Of a stretch of DNA of 29,281 nt, positions 7,074 through 22,730 are shown in pieces. Below the pieces are notes generated by a model. It had not been told where the DNA came from, did not search any database, and saw only the letters and a list, made by a program, of their open reading frames with translations. Source of the DNA: Nanobdellati archaeon (lineage in GTDB: Archaea > EX4484-52 > GLR71); NCBI GenBank assembly GCA_019429125.1, contig JAHYJO010000016.1:1-29281 (forward strand). The letters are read 5' to 3'. The number at the start of each line of letters is the position of its first letter. Positions within the stretch are counted from its first letter, which is position 1. The position numbers and the translations under genes are program-made.

Positions 7074-7844
7074 GCCCTTGATGCAAGTTCTATTCCAAAA
7101 AGATATTGATTTGACCTTAAATTAAAACTCTCTTTAGAAGGTTTTGAACCGTACGAAAAAATCGTACAGTTGAAATTAATTGCAGAAGATGGGAAATTAA
7201 GATTAACTGATTGTGTAAATACAAAAAATGCATTTCGTATAATCCAATCTATTCCATCAAAAAAGGCAGAACCTTTCAAACTATGGCTGGCACAAGTAGG
7301 TTATGAACGAGTACAAGAGATTCAAGATCCGGAACTTGCTCAAAAACGGATGAAAGAATTATACATACAAAAAGGATATTCAAACGAATGGATTGAGAAA
7401 AGAGTCAGAGGTATTGCTATAAGGGATGAGTTGACAGGGGAATGGACTGATAGGGGTGTAAATACCAACAAAGAATTTTCAATTTTGACGGCAGAAATTA
7501 GTAAAGCTACATTTGATATGACACCTTCAGAATATAAACAACATAAAGGTTTGAAAAATGAGAATTTAAGAGACCATATGAATGATTTAGAACTTATATT
7601 CACCATGTTAGGAGAAGGAGCAACTACACACATAGCAAGAGCAACAGACGCACAGGGATTTAAGATCAACAAAATCGCCGCAAAAGAAGGTGGCACTGTT
7701 GCAGGAAATGCACGAAAAGAATTATAATTAAAATCAAACGAAAAAATAAGTACGTCTGATAATTATCTTGAAGTTCCTGAGAAAATAAAGAAATTGAAAA
7801 AATCAGAAAACACAAAAGATACAGTTGGGAAAAAGATTAGATAG
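7074..7844 (+). pseudogene. Bro-N domain protein, 5'-truncated by IS with two nonsense codons
   Basis: ALDASSIPKRY*FDLKLKL…EPYEKIVQLKL…FRIIQSIPSKKAEPFKLWLA…NLRDHM…NARKEL*LKSNEKISTSDNYL. Paralogous to 9998-10846. Stops at 7107-7109 and 7725-7727. Confidence 0.88.
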
Positions 7845-8155: not shown

Positions 8156-9576
8156 GTACTTGTTTAGCTAATTCATCTAAATCTCTGTAAATTTATATAG
8201 TACATAACCGAAAAACAAAAATACTACTACTAATAATCATTATAATATATGGATCTAATATCAAATATAGATAATATGGAAAAAGAAGAATTGAAAACAA
8301 TTATCTTTAAGTTAATGAATGATATTGAACAATTAAAAAATGAGCTTGCAAAATACAAAAATCCAAACACCCCGCCTTCTGCAAACAAGCACCTTAAACC
8401 AAATACTCAGGGTCTTAAATCTGAAGATAAAAAACGTGGTGCCCCTAAAGGACATAAAGGCACCACAAGAATACAAATACCAATTAGAAAAGAAGTTATT
8501 AATTCTCATATTTGTCCAAACTGTAAAAGTTCGCATGTTGTCGATAAACAAATATTAAAACGAGTTGTTGAGGATGTTTCAGATGAAGTAAAACCCGAAA
8601 TTGTAGAATCCGAAATTCACAAAAAGGAATGCAAAAATTGCGGTCATGTGTTCATACCTGAACACAACACAACTCCTTTAATCGGTAAATTTGGTATAAA
8701 CATAATGGTTCTTGTTGTTTTTATAAAATTCATGTTGCGAGGTGTTTTAAGGAAATCTTCAACATTTTTTGATAAAAATTTTACACTAAAAATGACACCT
8801 GCAACAATCAATACGATAATAAAAAGAGTTGCAGATGCATCTGAAATTGAATATAATGCAATTAAATATAGAATAAAGATTGCAAAGATTGTTTATATTG
8901 ATGAAACGAGTTTTTCAGTTCTTGGAAAAAAATGGTGGGTCTGGGTTTTTAGGACAGAACATGACATTTTACTAGTAATTAGACCTAGCCGAGGCAATAA
9001 TGTGCTTGAAGAGATACTTGGAAAAGATTATACAGGGACAGTTATCTGTGACTGTTGGAGAGCATATAATTATCTATCAAATGCCCAGCTTCAGCGTTGC
9101 TGGGCACATTTGATTAGAAAATCTAAATTGCTAGAAACGATTGCAGGTAAAAATTTTCATAAAAAATTGAAACGATTGTTCAAAGAGATAAAACAATTCA
9201 ATTCATCAAAACATACTGAATTGGAAAGAACTGAAAAATATGAAATTATGACAAAGGAACTCAATAAACTGATAAAATATTATTCAAAATATGATGATTT
9301 GATGCCGGTTGTAAAATATATTAACTTCAATCTTGAAAATTGGTTTACTTGCATCAAAATTGAAGGTGTTGAACCCACAAATAATTTTGCAGAGCAAGCA
9401 ATAAGAGAAACGGTTGTGGTTCGAAAAATCATTGGTGCGTTCAGGTCAGAATCAGGAAAAGACAATTATGAAATCCTAGCATCATTGATGGCAACATGGC
9501 AATTGAAAGATGTAGATATAAAAGCAGAACTTAAGCAGATGCTGATAAAGAATTTATGTTTTTGCTAAACAAGTAC
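8156..9576 (+). mobile_element. IS66-family element, single-ORF (TnpC-only, ISBst12-like organisation)
   Basis: TIRs GTACTTGTTTAGC / GCTAAACAAGTAC. 8-bp TSD AAATAATT at 8148-8155 and 9577-9584. Confidence 0.95.
8249..9568 (+). CDS. IS66-family DDE transposase
   Basis: NPNTPPS, GAPKGHKG, CPNC…CKNC zinc ribbon, YIDETS, VICDCW, QRCWAHLIR and PTNNFAEQAIR. Stop lies inside the right TIR. Confidence 0.95.
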   Translation: MDLISNIDNMEKEELKTIIFKLMNDIEQLKNELAKYKNPNTPPSANKHLKPNTQGLKSEDKKRGAPKGHKGTTRIQIPIRKEVINSHICPNCKSSHVVDKQILKRVVEDVSDEVKPEIVESEIHKKECKNCGHVFIPEHNTTPLIGKFGINIMVLVVFIKFMLRGVLRKSSTFFDKNFTLKMTPATINTIIKRVADASEIEYNAIKYRIKIAKIVYIDETSFSVLGKKWWVWVFRTEHDILLVIRPSRGNNVLEEILGKDYTGTVICDCWRAYNYLSNAQLQRCWAHLIRKSKLLETIAGKNFHKKLKRLFKEIKQFNSSKHTELERTEKYEIMTKELNKLIKYYSKYDDLMPVVKYINFNLENWFTCIKIEGVEPTNNFAEQAIRETVVVRKIIGAFRSESGKDNYEILASLMATWQLKDVDIKAELKQMLIKNLCFC

Positions 9577-9849: not shown

Positions 9850-9997
9850 GCACAACATACAATTATCAAATTATAACAGATAACAAGCGCACCCTATACC
9901 TCCTCAAGCTCACACCGATTCTGCTGGCATACCGGCACATCACCTAAGACAGACATATAAACAAAAAAAGAAAAATCATCCTATCGGGATGATTAAC

Positions 9998-10846
9998 ATG
10001 GATAAAAATAATGCTTTAGTTTTGTTTGAAGACAAAGATATCAGAAGAGTGTGGTATAACAATCAATGGTATTTTTCAGTTATTGATATTATCGATGCAT
10101 TGACAGATAGTTCTATACCTAGGAGATACTGGTCTGATTTAAAAATAAAACTTGGTGAAGAAGGATTCCAGTTGTACGAAATTATCGTACAACTTAAACT
10201 ACAATCTGTTGACGGCAAATCATACAATACTGATTGTGCCAACACAAAGTCATTATTTAGGATAATTCAGTCAATACCATCTAAAAAGGCAGAACCATTC
10301 AAACTATGGCTCGCACAAGTAGGGTATGAAAGAGTTAAAGAGATTGAAAACCCCGAAATCGGACAAGACAGAATAAGGAATTATTATGAACTTAAAGGTT
10401 ATCCAAAAGACTGGATAGATAAAAGATTAAGAGGAATTGCAATACGTCAAGACCTAACATCAGAATGGAAAAATAGAGACATTGAAGAAGGAAAAGAATT
10501 TGCAATACTAACAAACGAAATTAGTACTGCAACTTTTGGAAAAACCATAAACGAATATAAACAATTCAAAAGTCTGCAAAAGCCAAATCAAAATTTAAGG
10601 GATCATATGAATGACTGGGAATTGATTCTAACTATGATAGGTGAAAAAGCAACAACTGACATAATAATATCAAAAGATTCAATAGGTCTTGAAAAATGTA
10701 AAGATTCTGCAAAAAAAGGTGGCACAATTGCAAAAAATACAAGGGTTGCATTAGAACAAGAAATAGGCAAATCATTGATATCTGATACAAATTATCTACA
10801 CTTGTCGGGAAAAAAGAAAAAATCGTTTATTGAAAATAAAAAATAA
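9998..10846 (+). CDS. Bro-N domain-containing protein (phage antirepressor-like)
   Basis: LFEDKDIRRVW, WYFSVIDII, PRRYWSDLK, LFRIIQSIPSKKAEPFKLWLA and NLRDHM. Alternative start at 9989. Confidence 0.9.
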   Translation: MDKNNALVLFEDKDIRRVWYNNQWYFSVIDIIDALTDSSIPRRYWSDLKIKLGEEGFQLYEIIVQLKLQSVDGKSYNTDCANTKSLFRIIQSIPSKKAEPFKLWLAQVGYERVKEIENPEIGQDRIRNYYELKGYPKDWIDKRLRGIAIRQDLTSEWKNRDIEEGKEFAILTNEISTATFGKTINEYKQFKSLQKPNQNLRDHMNDWELILTMIGEKATTDIIISKDSIGLEKCKDSAKKGGTIAKNTRVALEQEIGKSLISDTNYLHLSGKKKKSFIENKK

Positions 10847-10992: not shown

Positions 10993-11514
10993 ATGTTCAT
11001 TGAAAGTAACAATCAAAAGATGTTAGAATTATTTTTCAATTATCCAAAAGAGCAATTTACAATAAGGGAAATTGCAAGACGGTTAAACATAGCCCCACCA
11101 ACATCATTACGACTTGTGACCAACTTAACTGAAAAAGGATATATCCAAACAAAAAAACATAGGCATTATACAGATGTGACTGCAAACATAGAAAATACAG
11201 AATTTATTGATTTTAAAAAGATATACAACCTCTATAGCTTATCAAAATTAAAGACATATCTTGTTAAACAATTAAACTATCCGCAAGCGATAATATTGTA
11301 TGGTAGTTATTCGCGTGGAGAAGACACAGAAGAATCCTACATAGACATTTTTATCGTGTCTTCAACAAAAAAAGAAATTGACGTAAATACTTATGAAACC
11401 GAGCTTAAACGAAAGATACACATAATAAAAAAATCAGATTTTAGCATATTGCCTAAAGAGCTTAAGACTAACATAATAAATGGTATTGTACTTTATGGAG
11501 GGATTGAATGTTAA
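10993..11514 (+). CDS. wHTH plus minimal nucleotidyltransferase (MNT) antitoxin-like protein
   Basis: N-terminal FTIREIARRLNIAPPT HTH; C-terminal LYGSYSRGEDTEESYIDI (GSX10DXD with the first Asp replaced by Tyr) and NIINGIVLYG. Confidence 0.88.
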   Translation: MFIESNNQKMLELFFNYPKEQFTIREIARRLNIAPPTSLRLVTNLTEKGYIQTKKHRHYTDVTANIENTEFIDFKKIYNLYSLSKLKTYLVKQLNYPQAIILYGSYSRGEDTEESYIDIFIVSSTKKEIDVNTYETELKRKIHIIKKSDFSILPKELKTNIINGIVLYGGIEC

Positions 11515-11591: not shown

Positions 11592-12708
11592 TAGCAAACC
11601 AAGAAAGTAATTCCTGTTTTAATCAACTAATCTTTGTATAGATTCAGTACTACAAATACTCATAATTTGTTCTGGTTGTGTTCTTTTAGTAAAACTACTT
11701 ATTGTCGTTGCTAATTGATGCGTACTTTTAAAATTAGTGTTGTTTAACAATTTACTACGTGAATATAACCACCAATGTTCTTGTGGGTTCAGATCTGGCG
11801 AATAGGGTGGCAAAAATTCCAATTTTATATTCGGGTGCTTGTTAAGGTATTTTTTTACTATTATTGACTTATGTACTTTACAATTATCTAACATAATTAT
11901 TACTTTTTTATTTGGATATTTTTTGTTTATCTTATTTAAGAATTTAATGAATATTGGTGCTTTTGAATCTTTTGATGTCATTTGAATAATATCTCCTGTT
12001 TTTGGACATACTGCACCAAAACTATTTAATCGTTTTCGATTTTTTTGTGGTGCTTTAATTTCAAGTCTTTTTTCAAATGTCCAACCATACCCTTTTCTTG
12101 CAGCTGTTTTTGCAGACATTTCATCTTCGAAAAGTATAATTACATCTTTTATTTTATTTGTTTCAATAAATTGTTTTGCGAATTCTTTTTGTTTTTCTAC
12201 GTCTGCTTCTGGGAACTTTATTACTGCTTTCACATATCTTGCACCCATCTGCTTTAGATATTTTCTTAATGTTTCTCTAGAAATCATAATCTTTTTTTTA
12301 TTGAAATAGATCTTGAGTTCTTTTGTGTCCCAGAAAGAGGCATTGACTCCATGTTTTTTTGGATTGTTCTCTTTCAGCAATTGCTTTAATTTATCTTTAT
12401 CTTCTTTTGTGAATTTAGAAGGACGACCTGATTTTGGGTTGTCCTGAACAGTTTTATCATTTATCCATTTCTTAATCCAATTACGGATTGTGGATTCATC
12501 AACACAAAAAAGTTCAGACATTAATTTTATGGAATGACCTTTACTGATTCCATGTAATGCAAAATATCTTTTGTTTTCGTTTGCATCCTTACAATTGCGA
12601 GCCAAGTCTCGCAACAATTGTTCATCCTCTTCAAACATGAATTATAATTAGTAATAAGTTATATTTTTGTTTTTCGGTTATTTATTGAAAAACTTTCGAG
12701 GACTGCTA
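11592..12708 (-). mobile_element. IS630-family element
   Basis: Imperfect TIRs TAGCAAACCAAGAAAGT / TAGCAGTCCTCGAAAGT, flanked by TA at 11590-11591 and 12709-12710. Confidence 0.88.
11619..12638 (-). CDS. IS630-family transposase
   Basis: HTH, KSGRPSK, LFEDEM, MLDNCKVH and LPPYSPDLNPQE (DDE). Confidence 0.95.
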   Translation of the reverse strand: MFEEDEQLLRDLARNCKDANENKRYFALHGISKGHSIKLMSELFCVDESTIRNWIKKWINDKTVQDNPKSGRPSKFTKEDKDKLKQLLKENNPKKHGVNASFWDTKELKIYFNKKKIMISRETLRKYLKQMGARYVKAVIKFPEADVEKQKEFAKQFIETNKIKDVIILFEDEMSAKTAARKGYGWTFEKRLEIKAPQKNRKRLNSFGAVCPKTGDIIQMTSKDSKAPIFIKFLNKINKKYPNKKVIIMLDNCKVHKSIIVKKYLNKHPNIKLEFLPPYSPDLNPQEHWWLYSRSKLLNNTNFKSTHQLATTISSFTKRTQPEQIMSICSTESIQRLVD

Positions 12709-12710
12709 TA

Positions 12711-12820
12711 ATTGAGTTGTCCACATTTTGTGTATAACTGAAATTAATATCAACTGATTATGAACCTTATACAACAAATTACCTAAACAAAAACTAAATA
12801 TTCTAACACATCAAAAATAT
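12711..12820 (+). pseudogene. Degenerate third Bro-N fragment
   Basis: IELSTFCV*LKLISTDYEPYTTNYLN aligns with FQLYEIIVQLKLQSVDGKSYNTDCAN of 9998-10846. Confidence 0.65.
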
Positions 12821-12914: not shown

Positions 12915-15900
12915 ATGTCAGACTCAAAACCATTAAAAAACAAGCAAGTAACGACAGACTTTTTCATAACTGACGCCGACTACACAACATTTGAAGAAAA
13001 ACCAGCCATCCGCCTCTACGGAAGAACAAAAACAGGAAAGTCCGCAATAGTCTTGACCACCGATTTTGAACCTTATTTCTATATAATACCAAAAACAGAC
13101 CCAAAAGCCACCCAAAAAACAATAAAAGAACTCATTCTCAAAGACGACCAAGACAACACAATCATAATCAAGCGCACAGATATCCAACAAAAAACAGTTG
13201 ACGGCAAAGACATACAAGTTCTAAAGATAATAACTAACAATCCAAAAGACGTGCCCAAACTAAAAGATGCGCTAAAGCACATGAATTTTGTCAGTGACAA
13301 ACGCGAGTACGACATCCCATTCTCAAAAAGATACCTTTTTGACAAAGACATAAGACCTATGTCCTGGCTAAAAATCAAGGGCCAAGAAATAGCAAGCAAC
13401 TACAACTGCGACACCACAATCCTTGCAGAAACAATTGATAAAGACGAAAAAACCCAAGATTTTCCCAAACTAAACATATTAGCCTTTGACATAGAGACAA
13501 TACCCTTACCCAATAACAAACAACAAATAATAATGGCCTCTCTTGCCTCAAGTAGTGGTCTAAAAAAAGTAATCACCTACCAAAAAGCCACACAAAAAGA
13601 CACAATAATCAAAGCCTCGGAAAAGGAACTCATAGAAGAACTAATAGTGCAAATCCAAAAAGAAAAACCAGATTTCATAGTAACTTATAACGGTGACCAA
13701 TTTGATTTCACAGTCTTAAAAGATCGCGCAGACATAAACAAACTAACTCTCAACCTAGGTTTCAACACAAGACCTATGGAATTTTCAAGGCGTGGCATGA
13801 CAAGTGCGGCAATCATCAAGGGCTCTGCGCACATAGACCTCTACCAGTTCATATTCAAGGTCATGCGAACCACATTAAAATCCGAAACCTTAACCTTAGA
13901 CAATGTCGCAAATGAGCTAATCAACGAAAAAAAATTGGACATGGACTTTGAAGAGATGCAACGGATATGGAAAAACAAAGAAGACTTAAAAACAATAGCT
14001 GAATACAACCTTCACGACTCTATAATCACCTTAAAACTTGCCGAATACATCTTGCCTAACATATTTGCTATGTGCCACCTGACAAACCAGATTCCTTCTG
14101 ATGCTGGCAGATCAACTTACGGTCAACTCGTAGAATCATTTGCAATGAAAAATGCTACAAAACTTAACACTATAGTCCCGAACCGTCCATCAAGCGAAAC
14201 TGTATCTGACCGTAAACAGATAGCACCAATTGAGGGCGCATTCGTCGTAGAACCAACCCCAGGACTCTATAAAGACATTGCAGTATTTGATTTCAAATCC
14301 TTGTACCCGTCAATAATTGTATCTCATAACATATCTCCTGAGACTTTAAACTGTGCCTGCTGCAAACACTCAAATAAGAACAGAGTGCCGGGCTTCCCCT
14401 ATTACTTCTGCGAAAAAGAAAAGGGCTTTATCCCTGAAATTCTTGAAGAACTGCTCAAGGGAAGGGCAAAGGTCAAGGCAGAGATGAAAAAATATGACAG
14501 AAAAAGCCAGGAACACATACTTCTTGACAAGAAGCAGTATGCTTTCAAGACAGTGGCAAACGCATTCTATGGCTATCTCGGCTTTGCCGGATCCAGATGG
14601 TATAAGAGAGAGTGTGCAGAATCAGTCACAGCATTTGGAAGAAGCTACATCCACCACACAATAGACACTGCAAAGGATTTTGGATTAAAAACTATATATG
14701 GGGATAGCATCACTAAAAATCGTTTTGTGACTATTCTTGATAATGAAAGAAAATTACAGATAAAAAACATAGAAGACCTTTTTTACGAAAATTCCGACCA
14801 TATTTTTGAAAGAGATGATAAGGAAGTTGTTTTTCCAGTTAATCTGAAAGCTCTCAGCTTAGATACAAACACAGGAAAAGCGAAATTTAATAAGATCAAT
14901 GAAATTATAAGGCACAAATGCAGAAAAAATGTATTTAGAGTAAATCAAAAATTTGGAGAAACCTGTGTAACAGAAGATCATTCATTGATTGCAAAAGATA
15001 AAAACAATAATTTTTTGCCTGCAACAGTACATGAACTGAAAAATATGCAGATTGCAAAGATAATTGATATTCCCAAGTTAAAGCCGTTAACTAGAATAGA
15101 CCTCTATGATTATCTAAAATCTTACAAGATTCAATTAGATTATAAGAACCTAAAAAAGATAGCTCAGGTACATTATAACGATAATTTTGTCTGGTTTGGC
15201 TGGACAAGAAGAAAAGACAAGATACTTCTGAAACGTTTTATTGATGTCGGAACTGAAGAATTTGATGCATTATGTCGTATTTTTGGGATTTATATTGCAG
15301 AAGGATCCTCATCTACTCCAGAGACTACAAAAAGCTGTGCGGGTGCATCAATATATTTAGGTAATAAAGAGTATCTAGAAAAAGTAAAAGATGATTATGG
15401 TCTGCTTTTCTCTGGCGCAAAAGCATCAATAATAAGGTCTTGTTTGAAACCAAGAAAAATAAAGATTGCGTCAGGAGATTCATTTTATGAGGGTATAACT
15501 TACAAATTGCAGATGATGAATAATCTCTCTGCAGTATTCTTCAAATGTATGTGTGGTCAGAAAAGCAATGCTAAAAAACTGCCACAATTTATATATCATG
15601 TACCTATAAAATACAAAAAGATTCTTCTAGATGCTATGATTGACGGGGATGGTAGTCGTAATGTAAACAAAAAGTTAGGATACACAAAAGATTATATAAA
15701 AAATAATTTTAGATATAGTACAATTTCTCTTGAACTTATGTGTGGTTTATCCTTTTTGTTATCTCAGATGGAAATAAATTATTCTATGCGACATAGGCCA
15801 TCTAAAGATGAATATATTTTGCAGACATCCTCAAAACATAATTCTCGCATAATTACTAAAATAAAGCCTGTAATCTATGACAATTATGTATATGATTTAT

Positions 15901-16646
15901 CTGTTGAGGGAACAAACACTTTTGTAGATTCATGTGGTCAGATAGTATTGCATAATACAGATTCTCTCTTCCTTCTCCTTGACAGTAAAGAAGAAAAAAC
16001 AGCAAAATCATTCCTCACTCACATAAACAAAAACTTACCTGGTATGATGGAGCTTGAATTTGAAGACCTATTCAAAAGTGGCATCTTCGCAGCAAAAAAG
16101 TCAGGCACAGGTGGCGCAAAAAAGAGATATGCACTCATGAAAGAATCAGGAGAATTAAAAATACGCGGTTTTGAGCGAGTAAGACGCGACTGGTCAAGTC
16201 TTGCAAAAGATACCCAAGAAAAAGTGATGCGCCTCGTCTTAACAGGTAAAAAAGATGAAGCAACAGAATTAGTAAAAAAAGTAATCACAGATTTAAAATT
16301 AGGAAAGACAGATTTGGACATCTTAATCATTCATAACCAATTGACAATGCCAATCGCCAAATACGTGCAGATGGGACCGCACGTTGCAGCTGCAAAAAAA
16401 GCAGAAGCCAAAGGATTAAAGATAGAGCCTGGAACAGTCCTTAAATACATAATAACTAAAGGCACTGGTTCAATAAGTGACCGCGCATACCTATCTCAAT
16501 TTGCAAAAGATTATGACCCAGACTATTACATAAACCATCAAATACTTCCAGCTGCTTTGAGGATACTTTCAGCCGTCGGTGTCACAGAAGACCAGCTATT
16601 GAACAAAGGTACTCAGAAAGGATTATTTTCATTCTCTGGCAAATGA
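12915..16646 (+). CDS. polB: Family B DNA polymerase (PolB3-type) with one intein; about 826 aa after splicing
   Basis: Exo motifs FDIET, TYNGDQFD and YNLHDS; pol motifs DFKSLYPSII, KTVANAFYGY, YGD|TDS, KKRYA and GFERVRRDW. PIP-like QKGLFSF at the C-terminus. Confidence 0.97.
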   Translation: MSDSKPLKNKQVTTDFFITDADYTTFEEKPAIRLYGRTKTGKSAIVLTTDFEPYFYIIPKTDPKATQKTIKELILKDDQDNTIIIKRTDIQQKTVDGKDIQVLKIITNNPKDVPKLKDALKHMNFVSDKREYDIPFSKRYLFDKDIRPMSWLKIKGQEIASNYNCDTTILAETIDKDEKTQDFPKLNILAFDIETIPLPNNKQQIIMASLASSSGLKKVITYQKATQKDTIIKASEKELIEELIVQIQKEKPDFIVTYNGDQFDFTVLKDRADINKLTLNLGFNTRPMEFSRRGMTSAAIIKGSAHIDLYQFIFKVMRTTLKSETLTLDNVANELINEKKLDMDFEEMQRIWKNKEDLKTIAEYNLHDSIITLKLAEYILPNIFAMCHLTNQIPSDAGRSTYGQLVESFAMKNATKLNTIVPNRPSSETVSDRKQIAPIEGAFVVEPTPGLYKDIAVFDFKSLYPSIIVSHNISPETLNCACCKHSNKNRVPGFPYYFCEKEKGFIPEILEELLKGRAKVKAEMKKYDRKSQEHILLDKKQYAFKTVANAFYGYLGFAGSRWYKRECAESVTAFGRSYIHHTIDTAKDFGLKTIYGDSITKNRFVTILDNERKLQIKNIEDLFYENSDHIFERDDKEVVFPVNLKALSLDTNTGKAKFNKINEIIRHKCRKNVFRVNQKFGETCVTEDHSLIAKDKNNNFLPATVHELKNMQIAKIIDIPKLKPLTRIDLYDYLKSYKIQLDYKNLKKIAQVHYNDNFVWFGWTRRKDKILLKRFIDVGTEEFDALCRIFGIYIAEGSSSTPETTKSCAGASIYLGNKEYLEKVKDDYGLLFSGAKASIIRSCLKPRKIKIASGDSFYEGITYKLQMMNNLSAVFFKCMCGQKSNAKKLPQFIYHVPIKYKKILLDAMIDGDGSRNVNKKLGYTKDYIKNNFRYSTISLELMCGLSFLLSQMEINYSMRHRPSKDEYILQTSSKHNSRIITKIKPVIYDNYVYDLSVEGTNTFVDSCGQIVLHNTDSLFLLLDSKEEKTAKSFLTHINKNLPGMMELEFEDLFKSGIFAAKKSGTGGAKKRYALMKESGELKIRGFERVRRDWSSLAKDTQEKVMRLVLTGKKDEATELVKKVITDLKLGKTDLDILIIHNQLTMPIAKYVQMGPHVAAAKKAEAKGLKIEPGTVLKYIITKGTGSISDRAYLSQFAKDYDPDYYINHQILPAALRILSAVGVTEDQLLNKGTQKGLFSFSGK
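14706..15956 (+). mobile_element. Intein (417 aa) with LAGLIDADG homing endonuclease, inserted in the YGD/TDS catalytic motif
   Basis: Begins SITKNRFV, block B VTEDHSL, LAGLIDADG-like FGIYIAEGS and LDAMIDGDGS, ends VYDLSVEGTNTF…VLHN before Thr+1. Confidence 0.95.
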
Positions 16647-22113: not shown

Positions 22114-22730
22114 TGCTATCGTTTTTATCTTGTTATATAATACTTACGTAAGTCATTTTTCTGATATGTGTTATAGTTTATGTGTGTGTTCTTGTCTGCC
22201 TTTTGTCTTTATATGTTTAGTCTATTGCTATCGTTTTTAGCAGACTTGTATGACTTATATAACTTGTATTGTTTGTATAGTCAGTTTTCTCATTGTCTCA
22301 TTATCTCGATGCTTAATATTTTGTATTTTTTGGCACATGCTATCGTTTTTAATATATCTTTTAGAACTTATATAAGTCATTTTTAGTCTTATGTTGCTCT
22401 AGTATGTGTTTTTTGTTAATCTGTCTAGTGCTTATATAACTCTTACATAACTTATATGATTGCTTACATAATTCTTATATAATACTTATATAACTTGTCT
22501 TAAAACTCCCTAAAACTGCCAAAATTAAGGACTATTTACTGTATTCTAGTTATATAACTCTTATGTAACTATTATATAAGTCTGGTTTACGCTTATATAA
22601 TCCTTATATCTAGCTTATATAACTCAAAAACCAAAGAATAAACATATCCGGTCTGCATATTTTTGTAATTTGTATCTAGACAAACCTTTAAAAGGTTAAT
22701 GATATAAATGCCAATGTTTAAATTATATAA
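22114..22730. repeat. Array of palindromic TTAYRTAA boxes plus three TGCTATCGTTTTTA motifs at 112-bp spacing
   Basis: Exact boxes start at 22133, 22144, 22255, 22368, 22432, 22443, 22464, 22475, 22486, 22550, 22561, 22572, 22593, 22615 and 22723. The 14-mer starts at 22114, 22226 and 22338. Confidence 0.85.

Follow-up and report, generated by a model that had tools for sequence, protein, structure and literature searches.

A covarying palindrome at a fixed position inside Bro-N and DinD-type genes of archaea, bacteria and viruses

Signals and palindromes written into protein-coding DNA are known from several systems. The pT181 origin in repC, the phiX174 origin in gene A and the P22 pac site in gene 3 are cis sites that lie inside the gene of their own protein, and the pT181 site is a cruciform-forming inverted repeat. 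Integron attC sites and the ends of IS200/IS605 elements are single-stranded-DNA sites, mainly non-coding, that are conserved in structure and have a cognate recombinase, and thyA of Escherichia coli is a hotspot of template-switch quasi-palindromes. For Nematomorpha, palindromes in coding sequences have been described that are up to 284 base pairs (bp) long and essentially perfect ("binary"), occur in many genes and are gained and lost between species (PMC6649704); the authors consider them dynamic and possibly parasitic (PMC6649704). Here, we follow up a palindrome that was noticed in a preliminary description of a 29,281-nucleotide (nt) contig of a Nanobdellati archaeon (JAHYJO010000016.1; this whole stretch is referred to as the window). 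The palindrome, or dyad, lies within the coding sequence of an intact Bro-N gene, and two further copies lie in a pseudogene and in a gene remnant (Table 1). The preliminary description knew of no characterised mechanism for it, and in our full-text literature search, likewise, no account of such a palindrome turned up for Bro-N genes or for dinD. The main text of an E. coli inverted-repeat map (PMC6060812) makes no mention of dinD, whose repeat may be listed in the supplementary tables or the web map.

The dyad occupies one fixed position in these genes, its arms covary, it recurs across archaea, bacteria and viruses, and its mismatches carry no bias toward wobble pairs. Homologous DNA was compiled from species genomes, related genomes, metagenomes, plasmids, phage records and viral contigs, and a dyad was called strong at a site score of 7 or more. 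In the first set, the best hairpin fell on the same codon block (reference residues 60-70) in 66 of 66 copies, 62 of which were strong. The enlarged set of archaea, bacteria and plasmids gave strong dyads in 253 of 280 unique copies, and most of the 27 lower-scoring copies retain a shorter or mismatched form of the usual core; the exceptions without it are two Chlorohelix copies (L088 and L089), a copy with a dyad of different make at the site (L092) and one in which only an ACA/TGT remnant is left (L285). On viral contigs, which yielded copies to a profile scan and nothing to a single-protein scan, 53 of 59 unique copies were strong. Cultured bacteria with the dyad include Haliscomenobacter (12/12 pairs), Arcobacter cloacae (13/13), Parabacteroides (11/11) and Paracaedimonas (10/10). 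Furthermore, two of three Chondrinema genes annotated as "BRO family protein", which the query matches in their Bro-N part only, carry it with 10/11 and 11/11 pairs. The stems are mutually unlike (GTACGA/TCGTAC, GTCCCCA/TGGGTAC, TGGTGACA/TGTCACCA and GGGTGGGGGCA/TGCCACCCCCC), and 267 copies contain 120 distinct arm pairs. Archaeal and bacterial copies are 50-60% identical, and the family undergoes frequent transfers between hosts.

In 243 of 267 copies, the dyad has its centre at the middle base of a codon, as do all three palindromes of the window, for which this centring had been pointed out before; the spacer measures 3 nt in 204 and 5 nt in 50 of the 267. With this centring and these spacer lengths, whole codons oppose their reverse complements, and the encoded residues come in pairs such as T(ACA)/C(TGT), L(TTG)/Q(CAA), Y(TAC)/V(GTA), V/N, V/H, G/P, W/P and F(TTT)/K(AAA). 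Pairing amounts to ~96-99% at distances 3-5, 11 and 12 from the centre and to ~95% at distance 7; distances 6 and 8-10 pair less well and keep mismatches that are specific to a class. In 241 of 266 copies, the codon at the centre is ATT (72), AAA (69), AAT (54) or TTT (46). ATA, TAT and TTA together make up 3 of 244 central codons, compared to 26.5% of the A/T-only sense codons gene-wide, and a central Ile is encoded by ATA in 1 of 77 cases, compared to 28% gene-wide. Since TpA-containing codons are nearly absent even where they would be synonymous for Ile, the spacer is held to the form A(n)T(m) at the nucleotide level. No explanation offered so far, ours included, accounts for this restriction.

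The preliminary description had argued that selection on the protein alone does not explain the symmetry, and it had named homologs no more symmetric than codon-shuffled controls as the outcome that would speak against it. The homologs behaved otherwise. Over the 66 copies, the mean site score was 8.09, compared to 3.93 for synonymous-codon resampling with the protein kept, and single copies exceeded their own resampled versions with p <= 0.05 in 57 of 66 and with p <= 0.005 in 35 of 66 cases. A sliding scan along the whole gene revealed a sole peak of ~8.1 at residues 62-67, with values of 2.7-4.5 elsewhere. When the segment was aligned for 66 sequences, of which 63 are distinct, 76.7% of the cells were paired compared to 56.6% in shuffled alignments, a value that none of 500 shuffles reached. 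The arms covary as had been supposed: the covariation score was 0.516 compared to 0.179 in shuffles (again 0 of 500) and did not exceed 0.144 when the partners were slid by 1-3 columns. Changes on both sides were found in 14 of 15 pairs; one pair, for example, is CG in 26 sequences, GC in 21, UA in 13, AU in 1 and something else in 2. Most telling of all, synonymous choices covary at distance 11, where the third base of a Glu/Gln codon pairs with the first base of a Leu codon: GAG/CAG goes with CTN and GAA/CAA with TTG, giving G-C in 155 copies, A-T in 101 and a non-Watson-Crick pair in 9. Taken together, the synonymous controls, the single gene-wide peak and the covarying synonymous positions bear out the view that protein selection is insufficient.

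A second subfamily carries its own version of the dyad. DinD-type Bro-N genes of related genomes share the Bro-N-type N-terminal domain and have, at a structurally homologous spot just before the same β-hairpin, a palindrome of 28-32 bp that is centred on a codon boundary, as in ACCATTTTCCCGAC followed across the boundary by GTCGGGAAAATGGT, which encodes NHFPDVGKMV. In all 85 DinD-type genes, which come from many phyla, the dyad sits on one and the same codon boundary, with a score of at least 7 in 82 of them. The mean at this site was 11.65, compared to 5.25 for synonymous resampling (p <= 0.05 in 79 of 85) and 4.8 at the next-best position of the gene. Mismatches number 0 in 40 genes, 1 in 29, 2 in 14 and 3 in 2. 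The outer arms are near-invariant and the inner pairs covary (distance 5: TA 28, GC 18, CG 24; distance 6: GC 43, CG 31). The third base of an Asp codon (GAC/GAT) tracks the partner Val GTC or Ile ATC (55 and 29 genes), with 1 exception in 85.

The DinD-type dyad is also present in E. coli K-12, where dinD contains TGACCATTTCGAGGA-ga-TCCTCGATATGGTCA at nt 174-205, with 14/15 pairs and a folding energy of -12.2 kcal/mol (z = -5.2). The 121-nt stretch of dinD with the palindrome was found in 1,898 of 5,426 complete E. coli genomes, and a divergent E. coli allele differs just upstream and has the palindrome unchanged. dinD is a classic SOS gene whose function, to our knowledge, is still poorly understood; DinD has been reported to inhibit RecA. 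Several homologs of the window gene are labelled "DNA-damage-inducible protein D" by JGI. A BLASTP comparison of the window protein with E. coli DinD gave a single match of 66 residues in the C-terminal part (E = 0.003) and no similarity over the whole protein. The window gene is a member of a sister subfamily to DinD, and the DinD-type loci L306, L309 and L314 of related genomes are distinct from it. As a separate observation, dinD of E. coli N3 (L403; NZ_CP031609.1) is split by an IS200/IS605-family element with a partial tnpA and a TnpB/InsQ gene; the insertion lies ~30 nt downstream of the palindrome, and the broken copy has a T-to-A change beside the spacer.

A covarying stem could act in the DNA or in the transcript. 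The preliminary description had spoken of a DNA or RNA structure or binding site, and of these alternatives a constraint on the nucleic acid stands, whereas the RNA part does not. A hairpin in the mRNA that affects translation, stability or co-translational folding would have in its favour that the stem could fold as RNA and that structured RNAs are classically recognised by covariation. However, mismatches of the G·U type on the sense strand (G·T plus T·G) are no commoner than those of the A·C type (A·C plus C·A), with 51 versus 62 in the first subfamily and 55 versus 47 in the DinD type, and in the inner seven pairs G·U occupies 5 of 441 cells compared to 39 other mismatches. A stem in sense-strand RNA ought to put up with wobble pairs, and the lack of a wobble excess indicates a constraint on the DNA itself, in which the two strands are equivalent, rather than on a sense-strand RNA hairpin. 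Spacers are only 0-5 nt long in most copies, and those of 0-3 nt, which would make poor RNA loops, fit DNA better; a search of Rfam gave no match at E <= 1. We thus regard an mRNA hairpin as very unlikely.

We tentatively propose that the dyad is a selected cis element of the DNA, which forms a hairpin or cruciform and is read by its shape, possibly by the product of its own gene. That the dyad is under selection is probable. That it would work as a hairpin or cruciform is an inference. Pairing within the strand is kept and the letters are free, and the encoded peptide is compelled to follow; in our model, the hairpin or cruciform would be recognised by shape and not by sequence. The changes in both arms at once would be made by template switching, which is a plausible route for such concerted change. 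Lying inside the gene, the site would stay linked to it during transfers.

Template switching could, however, be the whole story, and this is the main rival reading. The dyad would then be a self-perpetuating quasi-palindrome without function, which arose in a tolerant part of Bro-N, whose arms are recopied by template switching or arm-to-arm conversion in a form of molecular drive and which the protein tolerates, a possibility that we take seriously and nevertheless consider rather unlikely. It agrees with pairs that are almost purely Watson-Crick and lack wobble intermediates, and with reverse-complement spacers near parity (AAA 69 and TTT 46; AAT 54 and ATT 72), as inversion predicts. The two intact genes that have no dyad also speak for it. 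Template switching is described as homogenising arms and inverting spacers in coding DNA (PMC8604942) and as making and maintaining stems (PMC8794818), and the same idea has been put forward for the coding palindromes of Nematomorpha (PMC6649704). Copies with the same arms have flanks that are at most 76% identical, and an inversion of the spacer is therefore indistinguishable from stepwise change. Against a purely mutational origin, ~90% or more of copies have kept the dyad, always at one position, in two subfamilies, many phyla, both domains and viruses, and nothing similar exists at other positions of these genes. Fast conversion predicts palindromes that are either perfect or lost, an argument taken from the work on Nematomorpha (PMC6649704), whereas the mismatches found here (of 11 pairs, in 272 copies) are unimodal at 1-2: 0 in 40 copies, 1 in 120, 2 in 99, 3 in 12 and 4 in 1. 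Broken copies retain the dyad somewhat less well: a score of at least 7 was reached by 94% of 232 intact copies, 82% of 17 copies with stops and 69% of 26 truncated copies, a difference that is modest and confounded, as contig ends and other architectures account for some of the "truncated" rows. Spacer codons of the form A(n)T(m), with ATA, TAT and TTA nearly absent, are likewise not expected from template switching. The unimodal mismatches, the better retention in intact copies and the A(n)T(m) spacer are signs of selection.

Several points weigh against the proposed shape-read element, in addition to the modest size of the difference between intact and broken copies. Template switching, a known mutational process, is enough by itself to give rise to perfect stems and to preserve them, with no wobble intermediates (PMC8794818, PMC8604942). 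The two Chlorohelix copies without the dyad are intact genes, and the protein can therefore exist without it. The arms of DinD-type dyads often remain complementary right up to the centre, with 66% Watson-Crick pairs at distance 1 and 73% at distance 2; a hairpin loop needs no central pairing. All counts, moreover, derive from related sequences, which overstates their independence.

As to what might read the shape, the most economical candidate would be the gene's own product, predicted to be a two-fold symmetric dimer, with DdrC of Deinococcus radiodurans as its closest solved fold; this step is speculative and more likely wrong than right. Bro-N (PF02498) is the only Pfam domain of the intact protein (42.7 bits compared to a cut-off of 25.6; residues 18-110). 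The protein matches phrog_15286 with E = 3e-87 and, in PADLOC, the family PDC-S13 (PDLC04920) with E = 1.8e-113, residues 4-279 aligning with positions 1-276 of the 286-position profile and thus over the full length. PDC-S13 is a candidate single-gene phage-defence family, on which the full-text literature search found no paper, and NCBIfam gave no match to the protein. In an AF2 model with a predicted local distance difference test score (pLDDT) of 86.7, the encoded peptide forms helix 62-65 leading into strand 67-72 of Bro-N, and the C-terminal half is helical. A Foldseek search returned chains of DdrC as the sole significant fold matches (E = 3.7e-6, prob 1.0, TM 0.40/0.50, root-mean-square deviation 13.8 Å, 12% identity). 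Homodimer modelling gave a score of 0.68 compared to 0.00 for the best of 3 controls, with an interface that includes residues 57-60, a contact agreement of at least 57% between runs and a partner pLDDT of at least 78; of 30 proteins solved as pairs, 20 attain this mark, and of 23 solved as single chains, 1 does. DdrC is itself a solved dimer, and the homodimer result may therefore reflect the likeness to it.

DdrC senses DNA breaks; as described, its dimers attach to nicks, to double-strand breaks and to supercoiled plasmid (PMC11347143), and in the model of the authors two nicked duplexes are held crossed in a writhe-point-like arrangement (PMC11347143). It is the closest solved fold, and it is DinD-type genes that carry a dyad at the homologous spot. 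The differences are the identity of ~12% to DdrC and a match to E. coli DinD that is weak and confined to the C terminus; the link to DdrC is one of fold only, with TM 0.4-0.5, which again speaks against our proposal. If the protein did read its own dyad, the result would be a promoter-independent autoregulatory or damage-sensing site that moves between hosts together with the gene. Carried further, the gene might be a self-referential module whose own shape-reading dimer couples DNA damage or supercoiling to the expression of the gene, independently of promoter and host; we consider this unlikely.

A protein that binds DNA could also recognise a sequence instead of a shape, and the preliminary description had considered an operator that co-evolves with the encoded peptide. 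The predicted symmetric dimer with a DNA-binding domain would suit a sequence-specific dyad operator, as would a spacer resembling a duplex A-tract. However, none of the four Bro-N palindromes of the source genome recurs elsewhere in that genome as a dyad, the 120 different arm pairs contain no conserved half-site, and no stereochemical rule ties a peptide to its coding DNA. We give this reading almost no credence and have abandoned it.

Nor could we uphold a second suggestion, that of a diversification device in which hairpin-driven multi-nucleotide mutation alters several residues of a specificity peptide together. It is true that the encoded peptide is the most variable block of Bro-N and falls into discrete classes, and a single template-switch event is described as replacing several neighbouring residues (PMC8604942). 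Contrary to what a diversifier would require, the arms evolve more slowly than their surroundings, since identical 22-nt arms occur in copies whose flanks are only 57-76% identical; the outer arms of the DinD type hardly vary, and a palindrome halves the sequence space. Such a device is most unlikely.

It is imaginable that the structure serves another agent, either as a single-stranded-DNA site for replication, transfer or recombination of a mobile element or as the target of a structure-specific nuclease of the host or a phage. Bro-N genes are multi-copy and patchily distributed, lie on plasmids and viral contigs and have transposases and toxin-antitoxin-like genes among their neighbours, and conservation of structure instead of sequence is known from integron attC sites and IS200/IS605 ends. 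In the inspected loci, which were not put to a systematic neighbourhood test, no recombinase or nuclease gene was consistently adjacent, however. Nearest-neighbour concordance across the dyad was 0.162, within the range of six control splits (0.088-0.204), which means that there is no detectable recombination breakpoint at the dyad, and a recombination hotspot was rejected on this ground. The insertion in E. coli N3 was likewise rejected as a case of hairpin targeting because of its distance of ~30 nt from the dyad. Use of the dyad by another agent is improbable.

The shape-read element that we propose has to be seen against the genome from which the window comes, which measures 1.16 Mb and has 34% G+C. 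It contains 37 perfect dyads with arms of at least 10 bp and spacers of 0-7 nt, compared to 16-23 in five block shuffles; with 37 in 1.16 Mb, a perfect dyad at any given site is rare. A fourth Bro-N paralog, on contig C23, has in the homologous place eight G, C, AAATT and GCCACCCCCCC, encoding GGGKLPPPL, so that its stem (G8/C7) consists of G and C only in an AT-rich genome. As a side observation on dyads of the genome, a near-identical palindrome with 10-bp arms, CATTATTGAT-GC/TGC-ATCAATAATG, occurs on at least 6 contigs, in several cases near contig ends (0-based positions C1:3144, C6:105, C18:15, C23:52826, C7:12307 and C12:67270), and probably represents one end of a mobile element that is repeated in the genome.

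Within the window (Table 1), the palindrome of the intact gene is as flawless as first reported; it encodes (Q)LYEIIVQ(L), and its centre is the middle base of codon 65. As single-stranded DNA, each of its strands folds with -9.6 kcal/mol (z = -6.0 and -5.8), and 0 of 200 shuffles were as good. The pseudogene is 59% identical to the intact copy over query residues 37-278. The inner core of its palindrome, at 7147-7171, is shared with the intact gene and has 9/10 pairs, in agreement with the earlier account, and the site folds with -6.5 kcal/mol (z = -3.2), which none of 200 shuffles equalled. The peptide of the remnant, LKKLSRTAIIELSTFCV*LKLISTD, resembles the family block, a homology judged by eye and unscored. 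Its arm pairs correspond to the 9/12 given earlier, a figure in which the centre pair was counted, and folding of this site by itself gave no significant result (-3.5 kcal/mol, z = -1.3; 19 of 200 shuffles equalled it). The remnant had been read as a case of compensating changes on two arms. The symmetry is there, but not an event within the window, and the remnant did not arise by drift from the intact paralog: its peptide ELSTFCV*L belongs to a class that already exists in the family, ELSTFCVQL (e.g., L052 and L065), and the compensation of arms is therefore a family-wide pattern.

Table 1. Palindromes of the window, the genes that contain them and transposase genes beside them
Feature	Position	Strand	Remarks
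Intact Bro-N / PDC-S13-type gene, 285 amino acids	9989..10846	+	Open reading frame; Pfam, PADLOC and phrog matches; AF2 model
25-bp palindrome of the intact gene	10170..10194	.	AGTTGTACGA-AATTA-TCGTACAACT; perfect 10-bp arms
Paralogous pseudogene	7074..7793	+	Lacks the N-terminus; two in-frame stops (1 TGA, 1 TAA)
Palindrome of the pseudogene (row L002)	7143..7175	.	TTTGAACCGTACGA-AAAAA-TCGTACAGTTGAAA; 12/14 pairs
Short remnant of a third copy, ~residues 50-85	12681..12790	+	Adjoins IS630-type transposase gene
Decayed palindrome of the remnant	12715..12739	.	AGTTGTCCACA-TTT-TGTGTATAACT; 9/11 arm pairs
IS66-family transposase gene between pseudogene and intact copy	8249..9568	+	Pfam DDE_Tnp_IS66, E = 2e-32
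IS630/DDE_3 transposase gene abutting the remnant	11619..12638	-	Pfam DDE_3, E = 1.8e-31; HTH_Tnp_IS630

Some further features of the Bro-N loci are recorded here. A hairpin, AATCATCC-tatcg-GGATGATT, overlaps the start-codon region of the intact gene (window 9975-9995) and of the C23 paralog (L003, ~1485-1507); as a second feature of the family it was rejected, being unconserved with a mean best score of 4.5 over 184 unique upstream regions. Beside the Bro-N gene lies a nucleotidyltransferase gene in the window (10993-11514; Polbeta/NTP_transf_2 with a helix-turn-helix) and, according to the record annotation, in Parabacteroides (L087, 1-210), and two open reading frames upstream of the C23 paralog (L003, 298-870 and 860-1375) resemble a nucleotidyltransferase pair by eye only. 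The neighbour in Megaera is annotated as a RelE toxin. On plasmid pACLO of Arcobacter cloacae (L084; NZ_CP053834.1, 58385-59281), the gene has a perfect palindrome with 13-bp arms and is flanked by cas4 and cas1b, which belong to a type I-B CRISPR adaptation module. In L126 (601-1765), L139 (601-1742) and L217 (601-1725), of which two stem from genome records (Methanoperedens and Aenigmatarchaeota) and one from a metagenome contig, the match extends over ~1,125-1,165 nt for a protein of ~280 amino acids; the first alignment piece ends at ~residues 91-104, which indicates an insertion of ~330 nt downstream of the palindrome. Elsewhere in the window, an open reading frame of 1,243 amino acids at 12915-16646 resembles a family-B DNA polymerase and has a long insert with intein-boundary-like ends (translation inspected by eye), and a cluster of AT-rich imperfect inverted repeats on TTATATAA-like words occupies 22464-22631, including 40-nt arms at 22541-22580 and 22592-22631 that are 73% complementary.

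If the dyad is a selected structure, as we propose, it would be a clear case of a structural constraint on DNA that covariation conserves within the coding sequence of a protein domain, in archaea, bacteria and their viruses alike, and the constraint would be strong enough to dictate the residues that oppose each other in the peptide. This bears on the SOS gene dinD and on the candidate phage-defence family PDC-S13. For annotation, it is a warning that covariation of several residues and seemingly parallel amino acid changes in Bro-N/DinD-type proteins are driven by the DNA and do not reflect protein function. Should the module moreover read itself, it would be a portable switch, alike in bacteria, archaea and phages, with a protein sequence shaped by reverse-complement codon pairing. 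As E. coli K-12 carries the dyad, the choice between a selected structure and a self-perpetuating palindrome is directly testable at the bench.

In sum, the Bro-N/DinD dyad fully matches the defining features of no close known system, and it resembles several in part. With integron attC sites and IS200/IS605 ends it has in common that pairing is conserved over sequence and at the DNA level; those sites differ in having conserved core boxes or extrahelical bases and a cognate recombinase, none of which was seen for the dyad. As in pT181, phiX174 and P22, a DNA signal lies within coding sequence and is linked to its own gene, but theirs are conserved recognition or nick sequences of replication or packaging enzymes, whereas the sequence of the dyad is free and the protein is nearest in fold to DdrC. 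A rolling-circle Rep is not indicated, the only Pfam domain being Bro-N and the loop varying between AAA, AAT, ATT and TTT. We know of no template-switch position that is conserved across one protein family at such divergence. Template-switch quasi-palindromes share concerted arms, Watson-Crick stems, possible inversion of the spacer and occurrence in coding DNA, and are, as described, sporadic mutational events (PMC8794818, PMC8604942). The palindromes of Nematomorpha, finally, are likewise inverted repeats in coding sequences, with both arms coding, degenerate positions that optimise pairing, and arm conversion or template switching as the proposed route; the Bro-N/DinD dyad differs from them in measuring 25-32 bp, in carrying usually 1-2 stable mismatches and in keeping to one fixed position per subfamily.

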